Below the pieces are notes generated by a model that saw nothing but the letters and a program-made list of their open reading frames with translations, was not told the origin of the DNA and did no database searches. A stretch of DNA of 54,728 nucleotides, counting the filler, from Perkinsus olseni (Eukaryota), in the NCBI GenBank assembly GCA_013115125.1. It is 3 parts of 3 records of this genome, joined end to end, with 100 filler letters (N's around TTAATTAATTAA, not from the genome) between each part and the next. Parts side by side here need not be neighbours in the genome. Positions count along the whole stretch, not along the records: positions 1 to 18,191 come from JABANN010000620.1; positions 18,292 to 36,466 come from JABANN010000621.1; 1 more part is not named here. The stretch is one strand, 5' to 3'. The position numbers were made by a program, and so were the translations under genes. Positions 3,361 to 35,381 of this stretch are shown here, piece by piece. Each line of letters starts with the position of its first letter. Position 1 is the first letter of the stretch.

Positions 3361-3671
3361 GTTTCCATCTTGGTAGGGACGATGAAAGGGTTCGATCTGG
3401 GAGTTAGACTCGAATGCCCACAGAGGTAAGTCAAGCCGGCATGGTGTATCGAAGGAAGTCGAAAGAGCCGTGTGGAGAGGGGAGAAGGAGACAACGCTAC
3501 GTGACACACTCATTTCGCTCACAACTGAATACATCATAGTCGGAAAGGACAACACGCACGCGTGCACACAACCCCTCCGATGTTGAGTTGTTTCAAATCT
3601 TTCAAGGGTCGACCTAAGATACGCCGCTATAGGACGAGCTCAGCGGAAGAGACTCCCGCTCAATGGGAAGA

Positions 3672-3766
3672 TGCGCTGTAACGCGAATGGTCATCGCTTC
3701 TGCGCACGCCAATCTAATCGATTGTGTTCATCTGGTGAGGCGCAGGTTCGACTCCCAAGCCCGGTA
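3672..3766 (+). pseudogene. tRNA-like relic
   Basis: A-box-like TAACGCGAATGG and an exact B-box GGTTCGACTCC (3745-3755). The T-loop is followed by 5+7+1 nt and then TTTTT. Stems are degenerate. Confidence 0.55.
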
Positions 3767-3929
3767 TTTTTCTGTCATTATTTCCGGTGGCCTTCGTAGA
3801 TCTGTCCTGCCAGGATCGTCTTTCACACGTCGAAATGGATGCCAGGAGTGCTCCTGAATTTAGAGGGGCCTTTTCTATTGACCGCCCTCATTTACCCAGT
3901 GAGCGGCAGTTTGAAGGAGCGTTTAGTAA

Positions 3930-6716
3930 ATGGGTGAACCCGACGGCGAGAAGGCGACGTTTTGGTACACGATGGTGGCCTCCACTATGGGCTCGGTGGC
4001 GGTCACTGCAGTTTGCACTCCCTTCGATGTGGTCAAAAATTACTGGCAGGTAACCTCGTTTGTATCTTCCTAGGATCAACCTAAGATGCGCTTTCTTTTT
4101 AGGCATCACCTGCTTTGAACCATCAGCGAATCAACACGAGTGGCTTGCAAGTGATGCGGCACATTAAAGACGCTTACGGTTGGCGGGCGTTGTGGAACGG
4201 CACAGTTACTAGTCTAGTGTATCAAATACCATCAAATTGGGTAGTGGGGAGCACGTTGACCTGTTTCGTATCTTGCATGCTTCAACCTATGATACTTATC
4301 TCAGACCTTCTTTCTACTGTACGAGCGTTGGCGCGAAGATGTCCCTGACGGAGTGGCGAGTGCCGCTGCTCGAGCCACCGCTGTTACTTTGTTTTCTCCC
4401 TGTAGGTTGATTGGTACGATTTGCGGGAAATGTGGTATTACTATTTTTAGTGGAATTTCTCCGTACGCGTGTGCAAGCCACGACAGGGATGGGGGAGGGC
4501 GCCATGGCGACGGTGAAGCGAGTTTTACGAGAAGATTCCTTTTCGAGCTTCTGGCGGGGATTGCTACCAACATTGGTCCGGTAATATCTGGGGAATCTTA
4601 GGTTGAACACGGTTATATTCAAAAAAGGTCGAAGATACCCCCCATATCAGGCGATTAATTCTCAATGATATTTCTCTTGTCTGCATCTGTTATACCACCC
4701 TTGCCTTACGGGACTGTTGCCTCCACTCACGAGCACTTTCCGTCCCCTCCACGACAATGGTATTACGCGTAGCTTCCTTGCCGAAGATCCCGGGTTCGTT
4801 CCTCGGTGGCGCTACTATACCATTCAGAAATCTATTTGGCGGATAAGCGATTCTGAATGGTATAGTTCAACTGCTGTCCTTTTTCCCTGCCTTCATACTT
4901 GTGGAGGAGAAGCCCGTCCACGACCCGGCTATAATTCGCCGCGTTTCGCTTGATTATAGCTGTTTATGGATTTGATAAAAATATCCTAAGGTCGATTATA
5001 GTCGTTCACGGAATCGATGAGGATGTGAAGATATCCTAAGGTTGATTACAGTCATTCACGGAATCGGTGAGGATGTGAAGATATCCTAAGGTTGATTATA
5101 GTCGTTCACGGAATCGGTGAGGTTGTGAANNNNNNNNNNNNNNNNNNNNNNNNNNNNNNNNNNNNNNNNNNNNNNNNNNNNNNNNNNNNNNNNNNNNNNN
5201 NNNNNNNNNNNNNNNNNNNNNNNNNNTAGTCGTTCACGGAATCGGTGAGGTTGTGAAGATATCCAAAGGTTGATTATAGTCGTTCACGGAATCGGTGAGG
5301 TTGTGAAGATATCCTAAGGTTGATTATAGTCGTTCGTGGATTTGTTGTTGCATCAGAGATCTTCCTTTCTCTGCAATCTACTGGTCACTTTACGAGTACA
5401 ACAAAAAGCTCTTCTTACCCGACCATGTGGAACGTCGGGGAGCCGCGAGATACGCGAATAACGAGGAGCTCTTGGAACTGGCAGAAAAACAGGTTGGGGT
5501 AGTAAAAGTAGCATAAAACGGTTTCACTTCGACCTTACTAGCAATTGTGATTATTGGACCTATCTCGTGATGGTCATTCCTAGCTTGCGCGACCGCTTTC
5601 ATGCGCTCCTATAGATGAATCGAATAAGTTAGACAAAAAAATCCGGGAATCTTCCTGTGAGCTCTCGGAACTCTCGAAATTCGTTTTTGCAACTGCCGAG
5701 TAATCTTATTCGTGAATTTGTGTGTCTTTCGCTCTTCATTGACGGCTTATATTATTATTCGCTTTCATCACGGGATTCATGGGTGGTGCGAAATTTTCCG
5801 ACTGTACCAATTTTTTTATCGACTTTCCTATCGTTTTGCTTGCTGCGTCGTTACCACGGAATATCCTTCTTACCATCCCTTGCGAGGTGGGTTATCGAGG
5901 GGATATCTTGTGGAATCTTAGGTTGACGCGAGGAATACACGAAAATTTGCAGTATCTTAGGTTAATCAGCCAGTAACGTGGATAGAAACCTTCGGGTTCT
6001 CCTTCCTTAATGGGGCGGTATGCGGCACAATCGCAGCCGCTGCGACGCATCCGTTCGACATGGTCAAAACCCAATTACAAACCGCCACTCGACCGAACAA
6101 ACAACACACTAACGTGGCTAAACGGTAAGTGGATTAGCGCGCGCCCGAGTGATCGAATATTGATATTGGGCGGCAGTGCAACCTCGACCTGGTTGAAGGA
6201 TACCAGCTTGATTCCGGCGATATTTGGACCGACTGGGACCTGCCGTCAGACGGCTTTCTATTTTACCACTATAACTGATTTTATGAGAGACTCGCCGTAG
6301 GGAGGGGGAGGGGATGTACGGTCGCTTCTCGTCATAATCGATCATCAGGGCGTGCGCTTTTTCTTTATGACGGTTTTTGGACTAATCGGCTTCAGGATTC
6401 ATACGACTGGTTCGGCGATGATGGCGATTTTCAAAGAGTATCGCTTGCGTGGATTTACTGTTGGTTTGGGACCCCGGCTACTGAAGGTGCGTATCCTAGG
6501 TTGGAGGGTGGAAGATACGAAATAGGTCGTGCAGGTCATTCCTGGATGTGCAATTATGCTTGGAACCTACGAGTTCTGCCATGCAGTAGCGGATAGCCTC
6601 GAGCTCGACAGAGTTTTGAAGGTGAGTCGAAGACAAAAAATTCAGTCGGTTTAACTTGCCGAATTTTTCAGGATCAGAAAGCTGAGCTTCCGTCGTCGTC
6701 GAAGTCCACACGATAA
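3930..6716 (+). CDS. Mitochondrial carrier protein, SLC25A39/SLC25A40/Mtm1-like, multi-exon
   Basis: Spliced translation gives three carrier signatures: PFDVVK (~4020), PLEFLRTRVQ (~4400/4450) and PFDMVKTQLQ (~6050). It also gives subfamily motifs RDLPFSAIYW (~5357) and VIPGCAIMLGTYE (~6535). Introns are GT-AG. ATG at 3930, TAA at 6714-6716. Confidence 0.92.
4742..4814 (+). pseudogene. tRNA-like relic (Gly-like) inside a carrier-gene intron
   Basis: T-arm CCGGG-TTCGTTC-CTCGG pairs fully (one G-U). D-loop-like AATGGTATTA, TCC at the anticodon position. Other stems are broken. Confidence 0.5.
4978..5336. repeat. Intronic tandem repeat, 50-bp unit, spanning an assembly gap (N 5130-5226)
   Basis: ATATCCTAAG recurs at 4981, 5031 and 5081 and again after the gap. 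Confidence 0.95.
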
Positions 6717-7418
6717 CCTTCGTCATTAGCGGCCGTTGAATTCATCGTCACTTCTGTTACATCGTTAAATTGCCTGTTTTATTCCTACCACCCATTGCGC
6801 GTCGTTTCTGCCGTGGAGAGTGTTTTGTTTGGAGTTGAGGACCACACCGTTCGCCGAGGCCCCGTTTTCGCCGGAGGCTGTGACATAGGTGGAAGAGGTC
6901 AGGCTCTTCGATGCGTCTTTACGGCGTATTAAATATGCGTACACTAAGTAGGTCTTAATAATAGCGACTACTTGCTAGAGACAATACACGAGGGGCGCTG
7001 AGACATCATTGACGTGCACGCGTAGAGTCATGCCAGAATGATGTGTCCCAGCGAGCCACTCAGCATCAACTGTCCCTTTAGAAATCACGGCTGATACTCT
7101 TCGCACAGTTGCATGGGCTTCCAGGTGTACCAACTAGTTCCCATCTTTCTTTGGTAGAGGATGAGATAGTAGGGGAAAGGAGCCACCGCCACGTGACAGG
7201 TGCCAGGAATAATCGTGGGGAGTTTTGGCGCAGTTTGGCGAGAAAACTGAAGAAATTTTCTCATGGCCTTTCTTCTGAGTAGACTACTTGGAAAGGGCCA
7301 TAAGAAAATTAAAGTAGTCACTGACGGTAACGTCAGTGGAAGGCGACGTCCGTCAGTGACTACTCGAAGTAGTCACTCAAGGGCCCATCAAAGGGCTACA
7401 CTTCACCATCATTTTGTC

Positions 7419-8175
7419 CAGGGGTTTATTTCACAGGAAATCCTAACCGGTTAGGATTTAGGACGTCTTCAAAAATAAAAATCTTAACCTCAAAACGTTC
7501 TCAGAAGAGTCAACCTGTTTCGCATGAAAAAAGCTTTGAAGGACAGTTGGATCCTAATTTTAAAGACGCCCTAACTCTCTTACCATACCAAGCAAGAAAG
7601 GAGAAAAATGCGATTTACCGGGTTGGAACCGAGGGTCTCACGAGTATCAGTCGCGTTGCTCAACCTACCGAGATACAATACTTGAATCGCGGGTCATGAA
7701 GATGAGTCCTTCATGACTACCACAGGCGCTAGACCTACGAGAAAAGTACTGCAACAATTGCAGTCTGCAACTCGCAGTGCACTTCTAAACAGATTGCACA
7801 GCACGCCGCTGTAATTAAATTTGCAAAAATACACGAGTCCCGAAGATTTGACATGTGCCGGGAGAGAACCAGGAAGCTTCTAGCGGAGCGGAACGTCTAC
7901 CATTTTCGCGGTTAGTATGCCTAGAAAGACTCCTCCGAGGTACTTCACGATGTTGTCCTGAAAACGTGTCCTAACGTTAGGAAAAGTGCCTTGCGAAATC
8001 CATACGTCCTAACCGCCTAACCTAATGTCAACAACCGCGTCCTAATTCCTAAATTCTAAATGGTAAGATCCTTTTGTCCTACCCTTGAGTCCTTTGCTTA
8101 GGAATCGGTCCTTGGGAATGCCATAAGGCCTAAAAAGGAGTCCTAACCCCTTAGGATCCTGAGGAAACCGTCCTG
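7419..8175. mobile_element. Putative degenerate non-autonomous DNA transposon (hAT-like ends)
   Basis: Imperfect terminal inverted repeats (CAGGGGTTTATTTCACAGGAAATCCTAA and TTAGGATCCTGAGGAAACCGTCCTG). Dense subterminal CCTAA/TTAGG motifs at both ends. No target-site duplication seen. Confidence 0.4.
7609..7690 (-). pseudogene. tRNA-like sequence with GAT (Ile) anticodon
   Basis: On the minus strand: GCGATT/AATCGC acceptor pairing, D-arm CTC-GGTAGGTT-GAG, anticodon arm CGCGA-CTGATAC-TCGTG, T-arm TCGG-TTCCAAC-CCGG, then A and TTTTT. There is an 8-nt insertion after the acceptor 5' strand. Confidence 0.6.
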
Positions 8176-8518
8176 ACTGCCAACATAACGCTTAAGAGCT
8201 TCCTCCAGGCAAGACTCGTAATCGATCATTGAACGCATATGCACAGCAGCTACGCTTCGGTACTCGGCGGTCGCCATTCCTTAATAGGGCCAGTGTAAGA
8301 GACTGGCTGCTTGAGACCACAACACCCGGGTTTTGCCATATGGAGTCCGATCTCTCATCTGTTGTCTTCTAATCATCCGCCACTTAGCTTACCTTCAGTG
8401 TAGCTTCTTGTCGGAGCAAGATAGGATCAGTGACATAGATATTAGTAATGTCTACGTCGCTGATCCTATCTGTTTTCCAGTATGTGATGTCACATTACAA
8501 GAGTCCCTCAGACTCCCT

Positions 8519-8666
8519 GCATACTCACGCGAGGGCACGCGAGTGCAAGGCGAATAGTGAAGTCAGATGGTTATCTGATACTAATGATACGTAGTAGCAG
8601 TAAAGGTAAGTGCCACTATAGTGCACTTGTTTCTCGCACCCTTGCGCTCGCGTATGTGAGTATGCG
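8519..8666. repeat. MITE-like dispersed repeat with imperfect inverted ends
   Basis: GCATACTCAC..CGCGAGTGCAAGG is mirrored by CCTTGCGCTCGCG..GTGAGTATGC. The core 8535-8605 is similar to 39677-39745. Confidence 0.55.
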
Positions 8667-9309
8667 TGCTCAGTCGCGATCGAGAGTGACCCTACCCTTG
8701 ACCTTCATGGACGAGAAATAAGAAGAAGGACCGTACGTGGAGACCGGCGGTCTCGGGAGTTCTCGACGTATCGACCCCCACGTAGTGAGAGATTGTACAT
8801 AGCGCGGCCAGGGTCACACTCGGGACAGTCAGGCGTCCCCTAGGTGAACCTATGATACCAGCAATAATGGCCATGGTAGACAAGGAAGGAGGTATCCATT
8901 AACTCGACTTGCTCAGCTATTGGACTATCGTGACAACTGCCCTCAACGGGAGGGCATATCCCCTCTGGTGATTCACCGGTTCCAGGCTTGCGTCCCGTGT
9001 AACCTCACAGCGGGCGTACAAGCCCGCTGTGACCGTGTGATCAAGCCCGCTATATCCAAAATTTCAGCTCATGACTCGGAAAATTGAATGCGTGAGGTCC
9101 GTCAAAGCAAATACAATCTTTAGATGGCGGGTACTGTACGATAAACAGGAGAGGCGTACGGAATGCAATAGCTATGGGACAGAAGCTTTGTAGCTGTGAG
9201 AATTGTGTGATGGCACAGTGCACACTGACGATGTAATATACGTCTTATCTTGTAAGTGTTTCGGTAAAAGTGGAGCGCAAAGTCTAGGCTAGTGGAGTAT
9301 GTTCCACTT

Positions 9310-9382
9310 AGCCATTTGGCCATGTGGTTAACTTGTATACTTGCGAACCGAAAGACCCCGGGTTCATTCCCCAGGTCTGACT
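9310..9382 (+). pseudogene. tRNA-like relic
   Basis: A-box-like TGGCCATGTGGTTAA followed at tRNA spacing by CGAAAGACCCCGGGTTCATTCCCC. Confidence 0.55.
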
Positions 9383-9540
9383 GATGCGCGATACTTACTC
9401 CGGCTACAGCTTATAAACACTAATGTTCCACAACACTAGTGCACCCGTGATAACTACCGAGCACAACACTAAGACCTTTGTAACATCATCAACATCATAT
9501 GACCTTATCAAGCCAACACTCCCACTATCATCCACCTACT

Positions 9541-10608
9541 TCAATTCATGAGCTGATTAATTGGCATTGGGAGTGTCAACGGCCGCGTTGCTCGCCTCTT
9601 GCTGACCTTCCTTTGAAGGGACACCACTCGTGACGGCGGAGTGCCCAGGACCAGTTCCCACTGCCAGTCACGGTAGCAAAGAAGAAAGTCGTCGAGGCCA
9701 AGACGATCGCCTGGCACCTCCGCCAAGTCCTCGAATGCAGCCAGGGTATCTTCATCAATGGTGGGCTCAAACTTCTCATATTCCACCCTCATTTCGAGAC
9801 GCCAGCAGCTCTCAGCGGTTCTGTTCAAGAACACCGCCGGCAGATCGACACGTACTTGCCGATCGGGGGCAATCGCGGACAGCTGGGCATTCGGCGGTCT
9901 GACGGCGAGTTGGATTTCCCTCTGAAGTATCTCGGGTTCATGCTTGCCTTCCACAAGTCCAACGTACAGCCCTTTGGTCGGACCAGCAAGATCCCGTTTC
10001 TTCCCCTTGCTTGCTTCCTCGGAGGAACTTTTGGGCTTGTCAGCGGCAGCCTTGTTATCAGTCTCCTCGGAAGTCTCCGGCACGGCCACCAGCGGCACAG
10101 GGCCGTGGAACTCTCTTATATTCAACTCGTCGTCTCGACCAGAGTAAAAGTAAACCGCCCATCCGTCAGTCTCGCTGCGGCACAAATGAAGAAGGTTCGT
10201 AGCAGATTTTGGTATGTTGTATTCAGAAAACGCTCGTAAAACGGCGGTTTTGTCAGCGTATCTTAGCTCGAAGCATGCACCATGCGAAAACTCGGCCTTC
10301 TCCCTGTGGTCGGTCTTGCGTAAAGATACCATTTCTCTAACCGGAACGAGGAACCCTCTTCCCGCGAAGCGCCCAAGACTGAGATTAAATTCAGGTCGCT
10401 GGGATTCCTCCTCGGACCAAATACGGAGGTCCAGGGAAGGCAAGTTAGCGACCTTGGGAGGGTCTTTATTGACGTAGTGACCAATCGGCGGTTCGGTCCA
10501 GGTAAAGCGACGGTCTCGGTATCTTAGGTTGGACCTCACACCCGACGCAGCAGGTAGGAGTAAGCTTAGATAATAGAGGGGGTACATCATGCTAGTTGAG
10601 GAAAACAT
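9541..10608 (-). CDS. Intronless secreted hypothetical protein, 355 aa
   Basis: Long ORF with a signal-peptide-like N-terminus (LYYLSLLLPAASG). Two apparently related Cys-containing halves joined by a charged linker. Confidence 0.75.
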   Translation of the reverse strand: MFSSTSMMYPLYYLSLLLPAASGVRSNLRYRDRRFTWTEPPIGHYVNKDPPKVANLPSLDLRIWSEEESQRPEFNLSLGRFAGRGFLVPVREMVSLRKTDHREKAEFSHGACFELRYADKTAVLRAFSEYNIPKSATNLLHLCRSETDGWAVYFYSGRDDELNIREFHGPVPLVAVPETSEETDNKAAADKPKSSSEEASKGKKRDLAGPTKGLYVGLVEGKHEPEILQREIQLAVRPPNAQLSAIAPDRQVRVDLPAVFLNRTAESCWRLEMRVEYEKFEPTIDEDTLAAFEDLAEVPGDRLGLDDFLLCYRDWQWELVLGTPPSRVVSLQRKVSKRRATRPLTLPMPINQLMN

Positions 10609-10664
10609 ATTTTGCTCGAGGAAAGAGACAGATCTTGCTTTCTTATCAACTCTTGCATTTCCTC

Positions 10665-10705
10665 AACGCTGGTGAAGACTCGCGGTTCGAATCCCGGTAG
10701 CGACA
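10665..10705 (+). pseudogene. tRNA 3'-half relic
   Basis: Exact B-box GGTTCGAATCC (10684-10694), then 5+7+1 nt and TCTTTT. Confidence 0.5.
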
Positions 10706-10990
10706 TCTTTTGAAATTCTTCGCTCCGCTGTTGAACTACCGCGCACGCCCTGCTCATCCAAACGCATGTTCGCAATCCGGCATTGGAAATATCTTTCGGC
10801 TCACCCATGGTCTGCTTGCTCTGGTCGTCTCAAACGGCGATGAGCTTTGGTTTGAATATCTTCTAAGCAATGATGTCATGAGTTTCGTAAAGGGTATCTT
10901 TTTATCACCATGAGCTTTCTCGGAAGAGCTTGCCGAGTCGCCTCTCCCTACAGAGGTATCTTCGCCATCACTCGACCGGCTCGTGGTGGA

Positions 10991-11695
10991 ATGGGTTCAG
11001 GCTTCGGTAATACCACACCAATCGCAACTTTTATGATGGCATCCTCCTAGGTACCAGCTACGCTCACGACCCGAAGTGGATCGAAGACTGGATGTCCAGA
11101 AAACGCGTAGGGGTCGACCGAATGGGTAGGTCGCCGGCGGCCGCCCTCTGCTGCTCGCCCTCTGTTGGTGGTCCTCCTCAGATTGGTTCTTCCGAGCCTT
11201 CAATCGCCTCCGTCTCTATGAGCTATTCTTTAAATCTACTCCACGGTGAGATCTTACGGTGCTCCCGACCTCTTTTGTATCTTCCATGATCCAACCTCTT
11301 GTGTATCTTCCATGATCCAACCTCTTGTGTATCTTCCATGATCCAACCTCTTGTGTATCTTCCCTCCTTCTACCTCTCGAGTATCTTCCATGCTCCAACC
11401 TCTTATGTATCTTCCATGCTCCAACCTCTTATGTATCTTCCATGCTCCAACCTCTTGTGTATCTTCCATGCTCCAACCTCTCGAGTATCTTTCTCCTCCC
11501 CAGGTTCTACGCGTTCATGGTCATCGGCGGCCTTCTCGGCTCCTACTACTGGAGTCGCTTTTGGGAGCACTACTGGATCCGAGTCAACAAGGGGGTGGGC
11601 GGCGACAAACCGACTCCGCCGCAGCCTCGCTCATCCGTTCTCTTCAGCGCCTTTACAAGGACGTCCCATACGTCTACCCGCCGCAGGAAGAGTAA
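10991..11695 (+). CDS. QCR9: Cytochrome bc1 complex subunit 9, five exons
   Basis: Exons 10991-11006, 11051-11125, 11182-11245, 11504-11594 and 11648-11695 splice in frame. Product: MGSGFGTSYAHDPKW...LYELFFKSTPRFYAFMVIGGLLGSYYWSRFWEHYWIRVNKGRLYKDVPYVYPPQEE, with one TM helix and the W-x-x-VNKG-x-LYxD motif of QCR9. Confidence 0.88.
11266..11490. repeat. Tandem repeat, 26-bp unit GTATCTTCCATG(A/C)TCCAACCTCTT(G/A)T, about 8 copies, in QCR9 intron 3
   Basis: Read directly from the sequence. Confidence 0.95.
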
Positions 11696-14600: not shown

Positions 14601-14711
14601 AAGAGATAGAGAATGACGGCCAAAGAGATATGAAGTGGACGGAAAGTGTTCTCCAGAAGTGGAGAGGGACTCAGATTCGAAGCCTTTGAAGCGCGCAAGC
14701 GCACAGGGGCT

Positions 14712-18191: not shown

Positions 18192-18291
18192 NNNNNNNNN
18201 NNNNNNNNNNNNNNNNNNNNNNNNNNNNNNNNNNNTTAATTAATTAANNNNNNNNNNNNNNNNNNNNNNNNNNNNNNNNNNNNNNNNNNNN
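18192..18291. other. Artificial contig linker (N-TTAATTAATTAA-N)
   Basis: Six-frame stop cassette embedded in Ns. Confidence 0.97.
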
Positions 18292-23753: not shown

Positions 23754-24053
23754 AAATATGCTACAATTCCGTGCCACAGCGAGAAGATCATCACCTTGAT
23801 GAACAGTCGCACTGAACGCAATGCAGTTTGACTAACATGACAGCTCTTTCACGTGCTGGCATGAGATGTTGCATCTCGGACGTCCTCCTTAAAGCCTTTC
23901 CTGAGCGATACAAACTTGCAAAATGGATCGATTTACACTAATCACATTCGACGCGCCGGGGCGTTGGCTAGTGGCCCACTAGTAGTGAGCAGAAGGTAGT
24001 AGAAATCTACCAACAGCTGGGGATCTTAGAGGTTAACCTGTGAGTATCCCGCT

Positions 24054-25182: not shown

Positions 25183-25702
25183 GAGAATCAAATGATGATG
25201 CAACGATGGTTGCCACAATTTGTCAAATTGCATTTTATGCGACAAAATAGCGCACGCCAGAAAATAGACTGCGCCAGTGGAAATAATCGGGGCTAATTGG
25301 ATGAGAAACTTCTTGAGGCTGAGTCTGCTGGCTGTCTCGGGTGGAAATGACTGCGAATTTAAAGTTAGAGTAGCGACATTAGGGCAAGCTAGGGTGACAT
25401 CAGTACATTATTAATTGCCTTGGATGATTGATGATGCTATTACTGTCTTGACTGCCTGCATCGATGCCGTCATGCTGATCTTCAATATTTTGCGGAGTCT
25501 CTGGGCCGTACTCGCCTACCCCATTACGATCGTCGTATCGTTCTTAATGGTAGTAGCAGAGGGACACTGACTGGCAGCGTATCTTCCGGAATGCAGGTTC
25601 TTGCATTGGTAGCATTTAATTGGTATGTTACGTGGACTCTGGTGTTACGCCATGTAATCAGGAGTATCTTGTTTTCTTTCGGCTGCGCAAAGATTCTTCT
25701 AG

Positions 25703-25817
25703 GTGGGTCCGTTCAAAGATTTCTTGAAGGCCAGGGCTAAGCGATTGGCAGCGGAAGAAGCTGCAGTAGCGGAAGAGAAGAAAAAGAAGGAAGAGGAGGC
25801 GGCTAAAAATCGGCCGG
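25703..25817 (+). CDS. Charged coiled-coil exon of an unresolved hypothetical gene
   Basis: AG acceptor, then VGPFKDFLKARAKRLAAEEAAVAEEKKKKEEEAAKNRP, then a GT donor. Hydrophobic exons lie upstream. Confidence 0.4.
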
Positions 25818-27170
25818 TGCGAAGGCGGGTAATATGGCGTAGTAGTCAGAGTAGTGGTTTGATGACCGGGAGGTATTGGGTTCGATTCTAATCAGGTCCG
25901 TATAGGCCTCTTCGGACCGTACATCCCAAAACGTCATCACTCCAGCTCTACCGCTCGTAGAAGGCCGGTGTTTTTGCCGCCTCCGATGAGCATCGGTTAT
26001 TGAGGTGGGCGTATCTTGAGGTCTGTGAGAGCCCAGGTCGACTTGTAAAATACCGACTGGTGATGCGTGGTGGGATGCCACCCAATTTCTGAAAGAAGAC
26101 ATCAATTCTGGACCGATAACACTGCCATAATAATTTTTACAGTCTATCCACATCAATTCGCAATGTCGTATACTATTGGTCATTTGAGCTGTAAGAAATA
26201 CCTGCATGTGCACTGGCTGACCTATTTTGTATCTCCCGCGAATCAACCTTGGATACGGCAGTGTTATTTATCAGCTTGTTGACTGTTGTGTGGGGCATTC
26301 CTATTGGGAACTAAGAATCTCTGATGTCAAGTTTGAAGGGTTCATGTTTTCCTTTTCCATGCCACCCGCAAGCAGCAGCAGCAGGAACTCGTGGGTTGAC
26401 CTCGACTCGCCGGAAATACAGCGGCTAATCGAATGGTAATTTACGCTCGAGTATCTTCCACCCGATTTGAGATGTGAAGTAGGTATAAGTTGAAGCCCGA
26501 TGAACGGCGACATTTGGCCAAACCTTGTGGAAGGGCAGCACCGGAGGCAGCAGGTGTTTCAAGGAGGACTCGTGAAGGGCTGTAGCATCGAGTTTGCTAT
26601 GATGCTGAGTATTTCAGAAAGGCCTAGCAAATTGCCGAGGATCGTGGCCCGGGCGTCGGGTGAAGTGAACCGGCAACAGCAGCGAGAGGAGGGGGATGGT
26701 AGTCGACCTAAGCAGGCAAGGATGGAGGACAAACGGCGCCGTGAGGCTATGAGGAAGTAGTGACGGTACTGACAGGGGAGATGTGGTAGAGATGTGGTAT
26801 CTTCGTCGTTCGTGGAATGCTGGGTCGACCTGCCATATATACAATATGTTAAACGGTCAGTATTCCCTGGCGAATGGAAAAGTGTAGAGTCTTGGAAATC
26901 TTCGGTGCTCGCTTCTCCCTCGCGAACTATGTACAGTCATTCTTGCCGTTCCATGGGAGAGTCTCCGTTGGTGTCGAAGAGATTCTCCAGGTTGTTGAAC
27001 AGCATCGAAGCAGCTTGCCGAGAGTACAGCCGAGCGATGGTCCACTGCCAGTACAGAGGTCAGGCCTTGCGGGATGAAACGCGGAAGAGAGACGTGCTGC
27101 CGGTAATAGAAGGGTATTCTTTTTGGGCTATTCTGCATCTAGCGAGCTCCAGGGTAAGATACCTTCTCAG

Positions 27171-27538
27171 TTCCACCTCGTGCCCCCGTCGGTGCGAACG
27201 GGGCCTCTGTCGTTGTTGAGAGAGTCTGTGGGAGAGTCAAGCAACGAGATGGTTAAAGTGTTGCTTGTATGGGAGGAGGAGAATAATGATGAAAATGGCG
27301 GAGCGGAGCTCGAAGAGGTTATGGGCTACCTTGTACTCTTCGATAAGACGTTCAACTTGCTACTGAAGGAAGTCTCGGTAATAATTTCGTGGCGCGGTGA
27401 AGGAAAGAGCGGGTGTAAATATCACTCCTCATGCAGGCCCGACCACGGTTCAGCGACCGAGTTTCGTGGCGCGCGCCGTTCCTGTTCGTGCGTGGAGTGA
27501 ACGTTGTCTGGGTTCGTCGAGGGGGGAAAGAATCTTGA
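27171..27538 (+). CDS. Sm/LSm domain (Lsm11/SmD2-like); last two exons of a gene that may start near 26359
   Basis: GPLSLLRE..VKVLL..GYLVLFDKTFNLLLKEV (Sm1). Intron 27378-27436. LFVRGVNVVWV (Sm2). TGA at 27536-27538. Confidence 0.75.
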
Positions 27539-28341
27539 ATCTTGAGGTTGAGCGTGCAGTATGCAGTGAGGTTGGGTCGAAGTTGGGCTCATCGGGGCCC
27601 GTTCATGCTACGAAATGTTAATAATGGGTTTCTAAGCGCTGATGTTGGCTTAGTTCTTGGAGATGGGTATCTAAGGTCGATCTGTGCATGATACGGATGA
27701 GCTCAAGGAGTTCAGTATGCTCCCCGGCATCTTGGGAACGACTTGGGCTGATCTTATCATCTTCAGTTTGGCATATTTCATTTCCTTCATCTCCATCGAG
27801 AGGAGGAAATTTATCTTCAGAAAAGACAAGTCGCACGGACAGCACCGATTCCGGCAGAGTTGGTCGTGCTCGACTTTCAACTTTTATAATAATCTTTGGT
27901 GGCAGTAGTACCGAAGGAGTTTTTCGTAGTCCGAACCCCTTCGGCAGAAAGTAGAAGATATTCTGTTGGAGATACCAGTGACTTGCCGCTCCTGTTTGAA
28001 AGCAGTCAAAGAGACCCTATCAGCGGCCTTTCGAACATCACCAACAAGAGCGAACTCGACAGAAGAAGAAGTACAGCAAGCAGGGATCGAACCAGGGACC
28101 AACCGAAACAGAAGTCACTTAAGAGACACGAATAAGACAGTGTTGTCTAACTCTTCTGATAATAGTAAAGGGAAGAGAAGCGGCCCGTCTGAAGCTATGG
28201 GGTGCGCGAGGTCGACTCAATCCAAACCGCCAGGTGAGTATCTTTAGGTTGAGGTGGTGGGATACGAATAAGGTTCGGGACTTGTGAGGGTATCTTAGGT
28301 TGATGCGTGCATAGGATAGTTGAGTGCCTTCGTTTTGTACA

Positions 28342-31080
28342 GATGTGGCGCGCATTGCTTCAGCAATAGTGCAAGCAGGAGGTGTTGATCCGTCCTCAGG
28401 AGGGGATGGTAGTAGGCAACGAACGCCCAACGCTGCTGCTGCTGCCGCTTCCTCGACGGAACAGCATCATATACCGAGGGATACCAATACGTAAGAAGGG
28501 TCGATAGGCTAGTAGGGGAGAGGTGTGGGATGCTGAAGTGGCCACCCGGGTTCGAATCCCTTGTAGTTGAATTTCTGATATTTCTCTATTTAGTGTATGA
28601 TATAACTACAACGATTGAGATCGAGAAATCTTAGGTGATGTTGTGTATCGTAGACGATAAGGCGCACTGCATATCATAGACACACCATTGCCTGTTCATT
28701 GTTGCTCGGCATGGTATCTTTCGTATGCCAGGTTGGACGTGACGGTGGATCGAACTTATGATCCATTCGAACCTGACCATATCGACAAGCAAACTATCAA
28801 CGGTTCGGCCGACTTCGTCGTTCGAATATTCAACATGCAGTGTCGATCCTTACCCGAGAGGATGTCGACTAAACTCAGGATATGCTGGGCAGGTAATAGC
28901 GACGGTGGGGAATCTTCGCTGTGCGCATCGGAAGGGTATCCTCCGCGCTTGATTGTTATTATTACCATTCTCGATAGGTACGGTGTACGAGACGGGATGG
29001 CGATGGTCAGCGGACCCTCAGTGGACGTCCGAGCCGATACGATTCATGTGGCATTACAAACCGAGCCCGAATAACAACCGAGGGATAGCAGGAAAGTTCG
29101 TCAAAGTGGATGTAATACATCTTAGTGGGTCTCGGGATCGTTGGATATTCTTCACAGTGCGGTAGTATGATATCTTTCTGGGTGTATGTTAGGTCATCCA
29201 GAAGCTCCCAGATGGGAGTGAATGTTGTCGTGGTACGGTGAAAGTATCTATGCTGACCATCGCGACTGGCCCGATGCACCACGATATTGGGTTGGAGCCC
29301 CCCCTGTCGGAGGAGGATGATGATGGCCATGATCATCTACATCATCATGAGCACACCACTGATGTGCAGCATGCGGAGCGGCCGAAGGGAATGACACCTG
29401 CGGCTAAGCTAGCGGAATCTGGCGTCGGTAGGTCGTAGTAGTGGGGGGGGGGGTAAGAATCGCTTCAGTTTCGTGGCGCGCGGTCAGCGGTTTAGTCTGT
29501 GGGCCTTCGAACGATCATGTGCGGGTTTGGGTAGACGAATGTGTCTACTGTCACGGTCGCCCTCGGTTCTCTGCTGTTAGTTCACACATGGGCCGAACGT
29601 GCGCGGTGTGAGTATCGAGTATCTTAGGTTCAAGCAGGCTCGTGATGAGTATCAAGATGGCTCAGCAAGGGAAGATTTATTTGCAGACTCAGGAAGCTTC
29701 TATTGACTTTGGTAAGACATTTGATTATTTTCTCGCGCGCCCTGAAATCATCATGTTATTGCTGCTTAGGGAGCGGTCACGAAGGTTATCCAGAAGTAGC
29801 TACTCCCCCATGCGATGACGATTCTGCGATGGGTAATCGAAAGGTCCCCGGTTCTAATCCTGGCAACAACATTATCCCCCAGGCCCCTCCTATATTGCTT
29901 CTAGTGAGCTTGTACCCGAGCAACCCGGAGAGGCGCCTTCCCTGGTGTTTGACGGGACTAGGGATCTCGTGGAAGGCAGTCAGCATACTGGGCGCCACTA
30001 CCTACTAGCGTATAACATAACAGGCTTGACATCATAGTAATGATACTGGGAGAGAATTCGTGCTTCGCTCCGCTGGGAATCTTATGTTTTGCATCATTCA
30101 TGGTAAATGCTTGTGGTATCTGAACCATGATGAAGTGAAGAGTCTTGCCGGCGCTGGCGTCGTCCTAAGAGGTTCATGTGTGGATTTCTTCAATTTTCTA
30201 CGTATCTTATCGAATTCATCGCGGTGCGGTGTGAATCTTCTCGTCTTATTTCGGTGGTATCTTGTCAGTCCTCAAACACCAGCGCCGCCTCCACCAACCC
30301 TTCCGGACTCTCCGGCGGGGCCAATTCCACAGTCCTTGGATCAGCTCAGTGATCATGTGTTCCCGGGGAATCTTTTCTCGACTTGGACACCATGCGTGCA
30401 GGAACCTGAATGGGATAATACTGATGGCCAGGTGAGGTTGAAAGATCCCTCTAGGGGTTGCGACCTAGGACGTATCTTTCAGTTACCGTTGGTGTGCTTG
30501 AAAACAAGTATGACATATTTGCGAACGGAATCGCTTTTATTGCGACTTTATTCATCGATCAATTTGTCACCGGATAAATTGGTGAAGTTTCGAGGCGAGA
30601 CATGGGTAAGATTCTGACCTATTTTGTATCTTGCGAGGATAACCTGGGGATACGGTTCAGATTCCTCTAGCGAAGATATATGAAGTGAATGAGTGGGGCC
30701 GTAACGCTATGAGTTCGGCTAATTCGGACTCGGATCAGTCAGCGTCGAACCAAGGCAACTCACCGCCTTTCATCGAACGTAAGTGTATCTTGAGGTTGAG
30801 CAAGCAAGATACAAAATAGGTTAGTCTCATGACACTTTGGCTTCAGGGACAATGACCCAGAAACTTTGGAATCACGGTCGTCATGTCGGCTTGTTGACGA
30901 TGCATTTCCGCATCACCGCCATGCCGCGATATAGACAGCTAGCGGCTGGGGTAATGCCACTGAATATTATTCTGTCACGCGCCCGAAAATTAACTTCCTC
31001 GTTCTCGGCTAGGTTCATATTGGTAACGGTTTTATCGCGAGAACGTCCGCGATTGTCCGCGACGAGCGACCGGGAAGGGC
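28342..31080 (+). CDS. Multi-exon protein with C2-like domains (boundaries approximate)
   Basis: Exons encode LRICWAGTVYETGWRWSADPQWTSEPIRF, GTVKVSMLTIATGPMHHDIGL and EPEWD..LLLRL..GETWIPL, which show C2-like beta-strand patterns. Confidence 0.5.
28499..28570 (+). pseudogene. Intronic tRNA-like relic
   Basis: A-box-like TAGGCTAGTAGG and an exact B-box GGTTCGAATCC (28549-28559). Confidence 0.55.
29830..29871 (+). pseudogene. tRNA 3'-half relic (Val-like)
   Basis: CGAAAGGTCCCCGGTTCTAATCCTGGCAACAACA resembles the 3' half of eukaryotic tRNA-Val. Confidence 0.55.
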
Positions 31081-31125
31081 TATGAGTGGAACTCAGAGCC
31101 CCTGCGATGATGTAAGCGATTATAC

Positions 31126-34100
31126 ATGGGTGAGTTATTCACGATGACGATCTTTTTCACGCAGGCGGCATTGAGGCGGATGCCGGATAAGCTGCGGAGA
31201 GTGTTCTATTTGAGCGAACGATTATTGAGTCCAAATGAGACGAAACCATTCGGTGAAAGTCAGAAGACGGAGAAGCTGGTATTGGAACTTGCTGATGCTT
31301 TCAGCGTCTCGGGTACTACAGGATTCGGGGAAAATACGGTACGAAGTTTGTCCGAATTTATGCGGCGATACCAATTAGCGGCAGAAGTAGAACTTTTTTC
31401 TCTGGAAATTCGAGAAAATGTTCCATTGCTTTGGGTGAATTACCGGACATGATGAGCTCGGTTGCGACGAGTCGAATTATTTTTTCTCAGCTTCCCGTAC
31501 CCCATCTTTTAGTCACTAATAGTTCCATCTGTTTAGGATCATTTTTTTCGGAGTAGACATTTCGTTTTGTGGCGACAGTCCAGTATCATTGCCCTCTTCA
31601 GATAAGCAGTCGATGAAGTCATTCATCTACAGTAGTGATAGGAATCTTCTGAAGGCCCAAGGTATGATGATGGACTTGATACATCAATCTGTGGCGATGC
31701 TCTCGTACACTACTGGTAATAATCATTAACTACTACCCGTTTGGCATCGTCCGAGGGTATGATGGCTTGCGAGGATTCTCCGCTTTGGTAGTAGTCACTG
31801 TGGGAACGGCATCATCTGAATTGCTCCATTGTGTGATTCTGTTTAGTAGAAGGTGAATCCTGATCATACAGTAGATTAGAAGCAGCGGGCTGAATATTTT
31901 AGATTTGTCTTCTGGCGGAGCGGAGTGATTCATGTTATGGAATTTTTCAGGTGGCATACAATGGGGTCTGCAGCAAGCCTATTGTCGATTACTACAAGCC
32001 TTGATAGTTCGAGGGGAGTTGGAGTAATAAAATATCTTTGGCACGAACTTGTTCCCAACGAGCTTCGCTCCGCTAAAATTACCTGCATTTTCAGAGCCCT
32101 TTCGCAATTGCCCCCTCCTCCTAGTGGGTATACCTCTCACGTTGAGGCACGCCGGGACTTGTTGAAGTATCGGGAAAATAAGGCTCAGAAAAGTACTGCG
32201 AGTGCGTGCATACCAACTTTTCCGCGCATCATCGTTGTGTGTCAGTCTCATTGGGCCCGGGGGACCCCGGGTATCTTGACGAGACCCAGGCTGCGGCATT
32301 GGAATGGTTCGAGACCAGAATGAACTGTTGTCGTCGATGGCAAGATACAATGTAAAGATGGGGAGGAGCAAATCATGAATATAAATTTCGCCTCCGTGTG
32401 AAATTTGTGAAATTTTCCGCAAGTGATTTCTCTGTTGGTGTGTGGAAGTGCTTCGCTGTTGTTGAAAGCAGTTACCCACGTTGAGATAGGATCGACATAA
32501 GATGTGAATGCTCGGGTTCGAACTCTGGACCTATTGCATGCCAAGTCACGTCCTCCTACGACTTAGTCATTCTCGGATGCCCTCTCAGATACACGCTAGC
32601 AGTTTTCGCCTTGCGGACGATAGACTCTGGTCGGAGAGGTTACAACCTTTATGAGGTTAGCCCAGATATGATACCGATGTTGTATGCGAGGTAAGGAGAT
32701 ATGCCCAGCGGATCGGGATGCGCTCCGTTCGATCTTCCCGAATTCATTCTACGTCATGTGGATAACTTTCCGCACGGTATGAGCTCTCACCGAAAGTATC
32801 TTCTTATGTGGTATATAATCGCTAGTAGCATAACCTATCTCATGGGATGGACTCACCATGTGCGTATCTTTCCACTCGTTATGAACTCACCATGTGCGTA
32901 TCTTTCCACTTTTTATGAACTCACCATGTGCGTATCTTCTCACTTGTTATGGACTCACCATGTGCGTATCTTTTCACTTGTTATGGACTCACCATGTGCG
33001 TATCTTTTCCTCGTTATGGACTCACCATGTGCGTATCTTTTCACTCGTTATGGACTCATTATGTGCGTATTTCTCCTCGTATAGAAGACCAACTATATGC
33101 ATACCTCTACAGTTGGTGTACACTGATGACGTATCTTGCTATTACCAGGTTATATTTCCTAGTACCAGAGCTTGGTAGAACAGTAGCTGATTGTTTATTA
33201 AGCAAAGAGGAGGAAGATATGGATATCGCTGAGTGGAGAGGCAGCTCGTAAGGTTGACCTGCGTTGTGCAAGGTGCGAGATACGCCGAGTATCTTAGGTA
33301 TAGCCTGATGCGAGCATCTTTACACAGCAATCGAGTGTGGGTCCCTCAAGCAAAAGATATTCAATTACTATTCGACCTTACTGACTTCCATAATGGATTG
33401 AAGTAATGAAGAATCTTTGTGTGCATGCGTGTAGATCGGCGTGGCGAATGGTATCTTGTTATGCTTTTTCAGTGAATACTTTGGATTAACGGAGCATGGA
33501 TGGGTGAGAGTGAAACGCAGACTGCTGCAGGTGAGGAAGGTCGAAGCCTGCTCTATAGGCTTCGAAAGATACGTTTTCATTGTCTTAGATTCAAGTTCAC
33601 GCATTGATCGGCGAGAAAAGTTTGTGGCGCGCGAGAATGAGGAAGAGGAAGACAACGTTTTTGCTCTTCGTGAAGTGTTGGTGCAAGTATGAACCTGTTT
33701 TGAATCTAGCATGCTTAACGCAGAGATACGTTTCTTGCAGATACGTTTCTGAAGTGGTTGTCGACCAGAACCAGCTGGCAGATTTGTGGAAGTATTTACC
33801 TGGATATCGGACGCTTCTCAAGGGGGTGAGTATCTCCAGGTTGATCGCGAAAGATACCAAATAGGTCAACTTCGAACCCACAGGTATTCCTTTGCATGAA
33901 GTACCATAAGAGAGTTGACCACTACCCGGATGCCTTAGTCGACTGTGCGGCCAGTGTCCTGAGGAACACACAGACGCTCAGCTGCATCGTGAAAGTGAAC
34001 AACTATGCCCGCTCGTGTCCTCTCGCCCTATCTTACTTTCAGATAATGTTCCACAGTACCAATGTCTATAACCAAAAAGCTGTCGCATGCGCTATGAAGA

Positions 34101-35381
34101 TGGTAAGGCTGAATACGGAGGGGTCTTGTCACTCATGGCTGTTCACTTCCGCAGATTCATTTCCTATTTTTGTCTCTGCTGGTCCGACATGCTTCACTAC
34201 CGGGCGATTTCGACATGAACTTTTTACTGCATGGCATCGATATGCTATTAGAGTACTCAGTCTTGACATCTTTTGTATCTTGCCTGCTTCAACCTGAGAT
34301 ATTTTTCAGGTGTGATATAGCTAGAAACATGCATAACGTTCTGTGGTTGATCTATCAGCATTGGGGTCTCTTTGCTGGCCCCGTGTCGACCATGAGTGGG
34401 CGAAGTTTGGTCACTGACCATTTACTAGGAAAGCACTTCGACAGGTTGCTGGTGAGCTTTGCCGAGGTTAATTTCGTGGCGCGTGACGTGGTGATTCCTC
34501 CTCAGTTGCATTGGTCCTGGTTTGTTCGCCAGCGATTCATTCTTCTGCTGCTCTTCCGCGTCGGCCCACTTGTTGGTAAGTCGAGCATACCTCATCCCGT
34601 CTGCCTTCAACCCTTATTTACAAGATCCTCCCCCGCTGGACTCGGCCCCCTCGGCTGAGCAGAATCCTTCCGCCTCGACTACTCGAGCGAATGATCAAGT
34701 CGGCTACTACAAATGGCGGTGTGTTGTGACTGAATTAGTGGCAAGACAATTAGCGAGGTAAGGCATGTTCCATTTCATGCATTTAGCGCCCGCCCTGATA
34801 ATCGATTTGTTTTTCGGTCAGATACGGTCTCACTGATGTTATCAAGGATCTGTCCTTGCGTGGGGGCAACGCTTCCTCGAACGACGCGAAGTCGTCGTCG
34901 GCTGCGGCGTCGGCGGGTGGCATGTTCCGAATGCCGGTCCCTGCGCGGACAGGACAGGTGCCCAAACGAGAGTATCACTTCAAAGTACCACCGGATGTAA
35001 CACCGTTACAAGCTAAGGAGGTGAGTATCTTGAGGTTGATCATGCAAGATACAGAATAAGTCGGTATAAAGACGAATTTGCTATGCTGATGAAATTTTCC
35101 GGATTCGAGAACTTGGGCGACGTTGTTGTGCGTCACGCGCCATGAAATTACGGTCAGGTGCCATTGGTTGAGACTGAGTGGACGAAACAGATGCAACATC
35201 ATGACCTGTGGAGGATGTTGCCGTCCGTATCAGTAAGAAGAGTATCTTTAGGTCGGAATAGGTGATGACCGTATCGTCTCAGGAGCGTATCCGATGTCTA
35301 CCACAATTTGAGCTCACCGACTTCGTCGAGCTCGACCGTGGAGTTGATGATTTCTCTAACCCTGAGCTGGATGAACAGTAA
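31126..35381 (+). CDS. DUF1765-like protein, multi-exon (5' boundary approximate)
   Basis: Exons with STNVYNQKAV, DFDMNFLLHGIDMLL, NVLWLIYQHWGLF and LLLHWSWFVRQRFILLLLFRV resemble the DUF1765 HWSxxVR region. Probable stop at 35379-35381. Confidence 0.55.
32848..33075. repeat. Tandem repeat, 34-bp unit, 7 copies, probably intronic
   Basis: ACTCA(C/T) recurs at 32851, 32885, 32919, 32953, 32987, 33020 and 33054. Confidence 0.95.

Follow-up and report, generated by a model that had tools for sequence, protein, structure and literature searches.

Introns formed by short repeats have been described in the sister lineages of Perkinsus, where the elements carry inverted repeats and function in both orientations (10.1101/2020.10.14.339549 and PMC7789003, in the parts of these papers available). 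According to the available part of PMC9860276, the median length of introner families runs from 30 to 654 nt, and target-site duplications (TSDs) or terminal inverted repeats (TIRs) are missing from many families. In the accessible portions of the first two papers, alveolates are reported to be without a minor spliceosome (PMC7789003), and boundary repeats, the kind seen where an intron is followed by GT, are linked to element-made introns (10.1101/2020.10.14.339549).

Here we analysed a window of 54,728 nucleotides (filler included) comprising three contigs of Perkinsus olseni joined end to end, in which a 39-bp element recurs, consisting of the inverted pentamers GTATC and GATAC separated by 18 nt (N18), an inner heptamer and a terminal AGGTYR. 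The preliminary description knew of no account of this element, and none was found in the literature searched; what is described are the inverted-repeat, intron-forming elements of the sister lineages (10.1101/2020.10.14.339549; PMC7789003, available parts). No introner of Perkinsus is mentioned in the accessible main text of PMC9860276.

The introner-like elements of the dinoflagellates Symbiodinium and Polarella resemble the Perkinsus element in being short, multi-copy, furnished with inverted repeats and constitutive of introns; some classes occur in either orientation, splice sites come partly from the flanks, and the hosts belong to the sister group. Dinoflagellate exons start with the intron's own dinucleotide, and likewise 11 of the 15 RNA-confirmed introns listed here (out of 62 RNA joints) are followed by GT, compared with 4 of 11 element introns. 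The dinoflagellate classes differ in that they have defined TSDs (3-8 nt) and that one of their splice sites coincides with a set end of the element, whereas in Perkinsus no TSD was found and neither splice site belongs to the conserved core; moreover, the Perkinsus copies, 62-80% alike, are more diverged than the dinoflagellate ones with their tip lengths of 0.9-3.8% (10.1101/2020.10.14.339549, available part). The introner elements of Amoebophrya share with ours intron inverted repeats able to form a hairpin, a non-coding nature, many copies and a parasitic alveolate host. In Amoebophrya, inverted repeats of 8-20 nt join the intron ends, direct repeats of 3-5 nt overlap the boundaries and the introns are mostly non-canonical (PMC7789003, available part), whereas Perkinsus has arms of 5-8 nt, set 4-20 nt or more in from the ends of canonical GT..AG introns, and boundary repeats linked to the element are absent. 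The internal position and length of the arms and the want of such repeats led us to reject an Amoebophrya-type introner. Introners generally are alike in length range, in opposite-orientation insertions and in sometimes drawing splice sites from the adjacent exon, but their families are defined by high whole-intron similarity (PMC9860276, available part). The Perkinsus family is conserved in blocks only, so a screen for whole-intron similarity would probably miss it.

Miniature inverted-repeat elements (MITEs) are likewise short sequences of many copies that code for nothing and have inverted repeats at or near their ends around a variable interior; the Perkinsus element differs from them in having no TSD and no AT-richness, in being smaller than usual and in being tied to intron bodies. 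A lox/FRT-like recombinase target has two inverted binding arms around a short asymmetric core; the element has inverted arms, but they stand 12-18 bp apart rather than 6-8, and a Pfam search of the window revealed no recombinase gene. The first heptamer looks like the beginning of the minor-intron (U12-type) donor consensus, which is of the RTATCC type at the intron start. In Perkinsus, however, the pentamer is not the intron start, GTGAGT-like donors lie 4 nt upstream, and antisense copies exist. A U12-type intron was rejected since RNA contigs at the copy at 28238 stop at a GTGAGT donor, 4-8 nt short of the pentamer; no minor snRNA was found in the window, where none was expected.

Recovery and geometry of the family

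All 14 copies first listed are present at their coordinates, and with one newly found copy at 33692 the window contains 15 full-length copies plus partial ones; the half sites reported alongside were also recovered. Eleven exact GTATC-N18-GATAC matches occur in the window, compared with a mean of 0.07 in 100 dinucleotide shuffles, of which 0/100 reached 11. When spacings of 0-80 nt between GTATC and GATAC were plotted for the window, as the preliminary description had suggested, N18 was the sole peak with its 11 cases, other spacings having at most 2 each. The fixed N18 that had been claimed is exact in 8/8 plus-strand copies and 3/6 minus-strand copies (4257, 26218 and 30615), and copies 3584, 4051 and 34264 retain the spacing with one pentamer altered. 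An nhmmer profile built from the 14 copies gave 42 hits in the window at E<=10, 22 of them at E<0.01, while 10 block-shuffled windows gave 2-9 hits at E<=10 and 0 at E<0.01. De novo repeat search recovered the family independently, with copies 62-80% identical to one another. By profile search the family is confined to the first two contigs, copies being absent from the third.

Conservation among the copies is block-wise rather than even, and the integrity of the blocks does not differ between sense, antisense and UTR copies. The inverted arms measure 5-8 bp in all copies, and since 11 conserved bases follow the right arm, this arm is not terminal. No 7-mer of the window is more over-represented than the first heptamer (51 counts). 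As described earlier, the inner heptamer shifts by one base, the linker being 2 nt in nine copies and 3 nt in five, and several copies have a degenerate terminal AGGTYR. The spacer had been called free, which holds only in part: the spacers are closer to one another than random strings are (mean nearest-neighbour edit distance 2.07 versus 2.76, P=0.006). The 3-nt linker variant is found in 5/6 copies in a DUF1765-like gene versus 0/8 elsewhere (Fisher p=0.003), one of the five being inverted, and copies 24407 and 27667 have a C variant of the inner heptamer in common, forming a subfamily.

Copies within and outside introns

Pfam frames, homologue alignments and RNA contigs put copies within GT..AG introns of 46-68 nt, in both directions even in a single gene. 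In each of nine introns of 46-68 nt, among 11 tabulated, the element makes up 35-39 nt (57-85%), leaving 7-29 nt outside. The claim that the element fills short introns in either orientation is borne out for copies 4051, 4257, 6491, 25062, 33830 and 34264, as well as 33692, through Pfam frames, the period of a repeated domain or alignment to homologues. Copy 28238 is placed by an RNA-supported donor, and copies 30615, 30785 and 35025 by prediction.

The mitochondrial-carrier gene (+ strand) carries two antisense copies and one sense copy. The antisense copy at 4051-4089 (-) lies in the intron at 4050-4102 (53 nt), with the donor 1 nt before and the acceptor 13 nt after it; ORFs 3930-4073 and 4103-4348, whose frames match Pfam Mito_carr, support this placement. 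The second antisense copy, 4257-4295 (-), lies in the intron at 4244-4304 (61 nt); here the Pfam match of ORF 4103-4348 stops at residue 47 (nt 4243) and the next frame runs from 4305. The sense copy at 6491-6529 (+) has its donor 4 nt upstream in the intron at 6487-6534 (48 nt), between ORFs 6301-6525 and 6526-6654, where the carrier-repeat spacing fits Pfam repeat 2. In the MORN-repeat gene (- strand), an antisense copy at 25062-25100 (+) occupies the intron at 25066-25111 (46 nt). Its acceptor AG is inside the element, so that four element bases are exonic, and TCAACCTAAG forms the intron's end; Pfam MORN matches on ORFs 24951-25187(-) and 25108-25407(-) keep the 23-residue period across the junction.

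Both orientations also occur in the DUF1765-like gene, with 33830 sense and 33692 and 34264 antisense. The sense copy at 33830-33868 (+) has its donor 4 nt before the element in the intron at 33826-33883 (58 nt). The tblastn HSPs of homologue P0009 end at 33843, just past the donor at 33825/33826, restart at 33908 and are approximately colinear after intron removal. The decayed antisense copy newly found at 33692-33729 (-; nhmmer E=9.4e-04) lies in the intron at 33687-33740 (54 nt), which corresponds to an 18-residue gap in the P0009 alignment. The antisense copy at 34264-34302 (-) lies in the intron at 34253-34309 (57 nt), at which both P0008 and P0009 show a 19-residue gap exactly, and a Pfam DUF1765 match begins just after it. 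These two homologues are contiguous over the element-intron positions and may derive from transcripts. The first cis-intron of this gene, 28234 to ~28342 (~109 nt), contains the sense copy at 28238-28276 (+), 4 nt after the donor, where RNA contigs stop at 28230 (three runs) or 28234 (one run); its acceptor (~28342) was deduced from a 3-letter ambiguity. A half copy (28290-28311) lies downstream of copy 28238. Predicted introns enclose the antisense copy at 30615-30653 (-), at 30606-30660 (55 nt; from ORF continuity and a custom gene finder), the sense copy at 30785-30823 (+), at 30779-30846 (68 nt), and the sense copy at 35025-35063 (+), at 35021-35157 (137 nt; donor 4 nt before). One RNA contig of run X7 diverges precisely at 30615.

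Element introns (n=11) have a median length of 57 nt versus 49 nt for the 15 RNA-confirmed introns listed; since they are barely longer than the others, mere addition of the element to an intron that already worked does not account for them. None of these 15 listed joints, out of 62, crosses an element. In 4/5 sense copies the distance from donor to element is exactly 4 nt, and in 5/5 the donor lies 4-6 nt upstream of the pentamer. On both sides the core is 1-13 nt from the splice site in most short introns; the distances vary and the flanks are unlike. No TSD was detected over 3168 boundary/length combinations in 14 copies, the only matches being internal to the consensus. Metagenome scans for lineage-specific or polymorphic intron positions returned nothing. 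The window also has at least two other recurrent intron words, plus a strong AG|GT boundary signature.

Two copies are not in cis-introns and two others (3584 and 24407) are unplaced. The copy at 26218-26256 (-) falls in the 3'UTR of the gene at 25402-26265 (+) and is crossed unspliced, the RNA contigs of four runs spanning 25895-26206/26259/26261/26269 with no joint. The copy at 27667-27705 (+) lies 60-100 nt 5' of the first exon of the DUF1765-like gene. Downstream of it, RNA contigs of four runs start at 27765, one having 9 unaligned letters before that position, and from these starts ~27766 is probably a trans-splice acceptor. The copy at 3584-3622 (-; nhmmer E=4.9e-07), upstream of the carrier gene, is full-length but degenerate, with its second pentamer changed, while the full copy with the inner-heptamer C variant at 24407-24445 (+) was found by exact pattern match, repeat search and nhmmer profile. 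Left-half copies were located by repeat search and nhmmer at 10519-10539 (+) and at 1329-1349, 5915-5943, 24259-24279, 28290-28311, 29619-29639 and 33289-33305. Three tandem arrays complete the set: a 50-nt array with an N run within it at 4981-5335 (+), whose unit has a left-half variant, in a long intron of the carrier gene; an element-derived 26-nt array of ~9 units at 11260-11491 (-), recovered by repeat search and 8 nhmmer hits; and a 34-nt array at 32847-33070 (+), whose unit has the first heptamer, in a long intron of the DUF1765-like gene with flanking exons set by P0009 HSPs 32590-32691 and 33048-33245.

Origin of the element

We read the element as an introner-like miniature non-coding interspersed repeat with a core of ~39 bp, copied at the DNA level, a reading to which we give an even chance of being right. 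The related spacers, the gene-confined spacing variant in both orientations, the decayed copies and the tandem arrays argue for DNA-level copying. The decayed and left-half copies, the three element-derived arrays, the presence of copies outside cis-introns (26218 in a 3'UTR, 27667 before a first exon), the constant 4-nt donor distance in 4/5 sense copies and the GT after 11/15 confirmed introns all favor an introner-like element; the missing TSD, the splice sites outside the core at variable distances, a GT after only 4/11 element introns, and the three predicted intron placements along with the two unplaced copies speak against it, and likeness of only 62-80% with block-wise conservation also fits selection on a functional site. 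The preliminary description had left the choice between a site for a multimeric protein and a tiny intron-generating mobile element. The mobile element is the better fit to a family with local subfamilies in both orientations, with decayed and tandem derivatives, that occupies most of nine introns; the protein site accounts for the fixed spacing and leaves the near-whole-intron extent unexplained.

We infer that the element is mobile, that its insertion creates introns and that its conserved blocks have roles in this. It would be copied at the DNA level in either orientation, often to nearby sites. In coding DNA it is spliced out as the main part of a short GT..AG intron, although its conserved core holds no set pair of splice sites. 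Sense copies have a GTRAGT-type donor made up of the element's first two bases and the four bases upstream, with a YAG acceptor 5-94 nt past the other end; antisense copies have a YAG 7-13 nt past the pentamer end (once inside the element) and a donor 1-13 nt before the other end. The copying machinery most likely needs the inverted pentamers/heptamers, with their fixed separation, and the two direct AGGTYRA words as its sites; this need would account for blocks that are preserved in both orientations beside a drifting spacer.

Among the alternatives, a cis-element under selection survives best, though we consider it unlikely. This would be a duplex site for a dimeric or multimeric protein, or an orientation-blind, protein-bound RNA stem; the protein would read the AGGTYRA words together with the two inverted pentamers, which stand 23 bp apart, and the copies would serve the gene or the chromosome. 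It agrees with an N18 fixed in 14/14 copies even though the inner heptamer slides by one base, and with blocks of equal integrity in sense, antisense and UTR copies, for which one-direction splicing selection cannot account. It also gains from the second intron word, TTTCGTGGCGCG, which is conserved at 7/7 residues in a relative's read-through ORF while 3/5 other intron codons differ; kept in the orthologous intron as neighboring codons changed, it indicates that intron words can be constrained in this lineage. A binding site, however, need not take up so much of an intron nor create introns. The left halves, decayed copies and arrays resemble repeat decay, the gene-confined spacing variant points to copying and not to independent selection, the third contig is free of copies, and there is no known binding protein; as RNA, the stem is no stabler than shuffles in most copies (z -2.9 to +0.6). 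We regard as improbable the proposal that the element is a working orientation-blind module, duplex DNA or palindromic RNA stem, with a dedicated multimeric protein at the inverted pentamers 23 bp apart, such that thousands of Perkinsus introns would be this site, for example as a chromatin or replication mark or as the place of entry and exit for an intron-moving enzyme that leaves no TSD and is still at work.

A common MITE-like repeat, landing anywhere, persisting only in the introns and UTRs of a compact genome and not creating introns, its host introns shrinking back later to the preferred length, appears quite improbable. The copies in the 3'UTR and upstream of a first exon, the two in longer introns (~109 and 137 nt), the inverted termini and the presence of both orientations would suit such a repeat, yet 9/11 host introns are only 46-68 nt long, the 7-29 nt outside the element are too little for a prior intron, every deletion would need to have left the element whole, and there is no TSD.

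Convergent splicing signals, with the first heptamer as an extended donor, the reversed inner heptamer as a branch/acceptor region and the inverted repeat as a by-product, have very little chance of being the answer: the element does begin at +5 of a GTGAGT-like donor in 4/5 sense copies, TCAACCTAAG closes the intron at copy 25062 and the first heptamer tops the 7-mers of the window, but the pentamer stands at +5..+9 in 0/15 of the listed RNA-confirmed introns, the reversed left half (in one of these) and the first heptamer (in two) are positioned elsewhere, and the same blocks are retained in antisense and UTR copies. The earlier judgement that an RNA splicing signal fits less well thus holds, the hairpin also not being unusually stable. 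A structured RNA family was rejected, with most MFE z-scores near 0; in the window, Rfam gave no match at gathering score and, with E relaxed to 10, chance-level ones only, and no covariation is readable because the stem pairs never vary.

Implications for alveolate introns

If the introner-like reading is true, the Perkinsozoa join the dinoflagellates and Amoebophrya as alveolates with introns built by short repeats, in this case by a repeat close to the minimum intron length and functional in both directions. Block-conserved families of this kind would probably be overlooked by screens that rely on whole-intron similarity. Together with the AG|GT signature, the further recurrent intron words suggest that a few tiny families may be the source of a large part of this parasite's introns. 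Perkinsus would then offer a compact system for studying the origin of new introns and the lower size limit of an insert that can be spliced.

Geometry and recovery of the element

The 39-bp repeat GTATC-N18-GATAC-N5-AGGTYR comprises two pentamers (GTATC and GATAC), an inner AGGTTGA-like heptamer joined to the first pentamer by a short linker, and a spacer. All 14 copies listed in the preliminary description were found in place, 11 being exact and three having an altered pentamer but the same spacing. In the window, GTATC-N18-GATAC matches exactly 11 times against a mean of 0.07 in shuffled sequence, a count reached in none of 100 shuffles. When pentamer spacings of 0 to 80 were tabulated, N18 (11 cases) was the sole peak, every other spacing having two cases or fewer. 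The fixed geometry first proposed by inspection is thus borne out, as is a one-base slide of the inner heptamer: the linker measures 2 nt in nine copies and 3 nt in five, and in these five the spacer is one base shorter.

Searching the window with a profile of these 14 copies gave 42 matches, 22 of them at E<0.01, versus two to nine matches in each of ten shuffled windows, none at E<0.01. De novo repeat finding retrieved the family unaided, with copies 62–80% identical; an additional decayed copy was identified at 33692-33729, and three tandem arrays have element-derived units. All profile matches lie within the first two contigs (1-18191 and 18292-36466), and the third (36567-54728) shows background counts only. 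The contig joins are N runs around a TTAATTAATTAA linker (18192-18291 and 36467-36566), and a further N run lies within the first contig (5130-5226).

Placement of copies and anatomy of their introns

RNA evidence consisted of contigs from four public runs, one an RNA library and the other three presumed to be RNA, aligned to 18300-36460. Spliced forms had GT..AG or CT..AC ends and skipped 44–128 nt. Fifteen of 62 joints were listed and the corresponding introns written out; no element overlaps any of these 15, and the placement of copies in introns rests on reading frames and homologues instead. Depth gaps in the runs across 23754-24965 were not counted as evidence.

Gene A, a mitochondrial-carrier gene on the plus strand (approximately 3969-6700; Pfam matches on five ORFs), has three introns with copies. 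Those at 4050-4102 and 4244-4304 each contain an antisense copy, as judged from ORF frames and stops and from where the Pfam matches end, and 6487-6534 contains the sense copy 6491. Mitochondrial-carrier repeats follow a P..P..YE residue spacing; use of the acceptor of 6487-6534, and not of the AG within the element, restores this spacing as it stands in carrier repeat 2.

Gene B, also on the plus strand (approximately 27766 to past 35300), has a weak DUF1765 match in Pfam; word searches with pieces of its protein gave no matches. It was compared by tblastn with two relatives, P0008 and P0009, obtained in a HMMER search. A 19-residue gap falls exactly at intron 34253-34309, which contains an antisense copy, and an 18-residue gap at 33687-33740, which contains a decayed antisense copy; removal of 33826-33883, with a sense copy, leaves the sequence near-colinear with the homologues. 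Near copy 28238 the RNA contigs of three runs end at 28230 and those of one run at 28234, the place of a GTGAGT donor 4 nt ahead of the element, and we infer an acceptor at 28342.

Copy 25062 runs antisense to a gene on the minus strand with MORN matches in Pfam, in which intron 25066-25111 retains the 23-residue MORN period; its acceptor AG falls within the element. Copies 30615, 30785 and 35025 lie in predicted introns from our own gene finder, which recovered 13 of 15 training introns but over-split badly on self-training (487 introns) with visible errors, so that its calls are graded as predictions. Pfam searches with very short exons in the window returned no match. Ranking candidate introns by ORF length was misleading at 4257 and 25062. 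At 30615, a contig of X7, one of the public sequencing runs, matches exactly from the element end onward, preceded by 118 unrelated letters, the last 30 of which do not occur elsewhere in the window; it could represent another locus or allele with this copy.

The proposal that copies fill short introns in either orientation is supported by those placed from frames or homologues in genes A and B and in the MORN gene. It does not extend to two others. Copy 26218 lies where a small plus-strand gene of high coverage has its 3' end, and contigs of four runs cross it unspliced, which establishes an unspliced form without excluding a spliced one. Contigs of four runs start at 27765, and copy 27667 lies 60–100 nt upstream of this point. 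Copies 3584 and 24407 are the two without an assigned gene context. Apart from four bases of 25062, no copy occupies a supported coding exon.

RNA contigs start at 23762, 25402 and 27765 with about nine letters that do not align; at two of these points the letters read CTTGGCTCA, on one strand or the other. The 9-letter loose ends at 25402 and 23762 resemble spliced-leader remnants, and the three positions are probably the spliced-leader trans-splice acceptors of three genes.

In sense copies the donor GT lies exactly 4 nt ahead of the element in four of five cases and 6 nt ahead in the fifth; at 4 nt, the element's first two bases become positions +5 and +6 of a GTRAGT donor. The acceptors follow 5, 15, 23, about 66 or about 94 nt past the far end. 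For the antisense copies, six in number, the donor is 1–13 nt ahead of the other element end, and the acceptor 7, 7, 9, 11 or 13 nt past the pentamer end or, in one, 4 nt within it. Nine of 11 host introns measure 46–68 nt, and the median of the 11 is 57 nt versus 49 nt in the 15 RNA-confirmed introns; the element thus makes up most of its intron, with only 7–29 nt outside. Given these lengths, an ordinary MITE whose only tie to introns is that it persists there is unlikely.

Several other identities were tried and rejected. The pentamer occupies +5..+9 in none of the 15 confirmed introns, which excludes a general splice signal, in agreement with the earlier judgement that such a signal fits less well; these introns likewise make convergence of splice signals unlikely. 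A U12-type donor is contradicted by the GT 4–6 nt before the pentamer and by the contigs stopping at GTGAGT near 28238. No stable RNA hairpin is indicated in either orientation (MFE z-scores versus shuffles -2.9 to +0.6, mostly near zero). The element matched no Rfam family or tRNA, and snRNA-like resemblances noticed by eye (U6, U2, 7SL) found no support from Rfam or ARAGORN.

Other recurrent words and neighbouring sequences

Another word that recurs in introns, referred to here as the second intron word, is (A/G)TTTCGTGGCGCG. Its core matches 11 times, with 10 of the matches on the second contig and the first contig lacking it (20911-20958, 21071-21121, 27389, 27466, 29473, 33624 and 34452-34505, among others). 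It occurs in RNA-confirmed introns, mostly sense to the host gene. Words resembling the tRNA T-arm, GGTTCGAWYC, have six matches and occur in several introns (sites include 25829-25895, 28500-28566, 36032-36159, 22843 and 29830), two of which are also alike over a longer stretch ahead of the word. ARAGORN found no tRNA gene, and the words may constitute a third small repeat family.

Neither the 39-bp element nor the second intron word occurs in the third contig, which may represent another type of region or come from another source. Its three tandem paralogues (37748-38280, 40250-40605 and 42684-42846), spaced about 2.4 kb from one another and 77–94% identical in patches, are too diverged for intron gain to be read from the 37.7–43 kb interval. 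Two further ORFs there (40588-41172 and 45892-46551), both outside the repeated patches, have no Pfam domains. In the first contig, an intron-less open frame of 510 residues (1344-2876, minus strand) stands amid an intron-rich region and matched neither Pfam nor the protein atlas. A second ORF without introns, encoding an aspartyl protease (14712-15794, minus strand), shows 88%, 79% and 63% identity to proteins named from Perkinsus olseni and 49% to a P. marinus protein, and the source was accordingly taken to be a Perkinsus-like alveolate.

Evidence for copying of the element, and its likely nature

The spacers, at first thought to be free in sequence, are related (nearest-neighbour edit distance 2.07 versus 2.76 for random strings, P=0.006). 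The 3-nt linker variant is found in five of six copies in gene B and in none of eight elsewhere (Fisher p=0.003), and 24407 and 27667, 3.2 kb apart, have another variant in common. Since 30615 is inverted relative to the other four 3-nt-linker copies, the copying agent appears able to flip the element, which points to copying at the DNA level rather than by reverse splicing. The left-half copies, the decayed copies and the arrays are further signs of a repeat family at various stages of decay. No target-site duplication was found across 3168 combinations of boundary and length, and public metagenomes contained no match to the element and no relatives of P0008.

The preliminary description offered two readings, a duplex-DNA site for a multimeric protein and a tiny intron-generating mobile element. 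A selected DNA site would also account for the block-wise conservation with fixed spacing, which is equal in both orientations. Constraint is also suggested by P0010, a Logan-derived ORF of a relative whose reading frame continues across the intron orthologous to 34452-34505: all seven residues of the second intron word are retained there, and three of the five remaining intron codons differ. We regard such a site as a rather improbable explanation. The mobile element is the better of the two, and we put the chance that this is an introner-like miniature repeat at roughly even, mobility being part of that reading and not something observed. Under the introner-like reading the element would insert in either orientation, and neighbouring GT and AG would then yield a short intron.

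Dinoflagellates are described as having many introner classes, some acting in both directions, with boundaries at which the exon begins with the intron's own first dinucleotide (bioRxiv 10.1101/2020.10.14.339549). The window is similar: GT directly follows the intron (AG|GT) in 11 of the 15 RNA-confirmed introns (19395-21121, 25550-25895 and 35754-36293), and that account ties such repeats to element-made introns. The 15 joints carry 3–5 ambiguous letters, the boundary repeat, and branch-site words were not evident in these introns. Intron-forming elements with inverted repeats are reported from Amoebophrya (PMC7789003), and a survey of 548 introner families gives median lengths of 30–654 nt, many families having neither TSDs nor TIRs (PMC9860276). 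For P. marinus, introns are reported to be mostly <100 bp, with a minimum of 39 bp (PMC3101222). Searches of the Perkinsus literature on introns, introners, transposable elements and MITEs, and for the motif sequences, turned up no description of the element, as had been supposed, although a Perkinsus family may yet appear in the supplementary tables of PMC9860276. The introner-like kind is already known in sister lineages.
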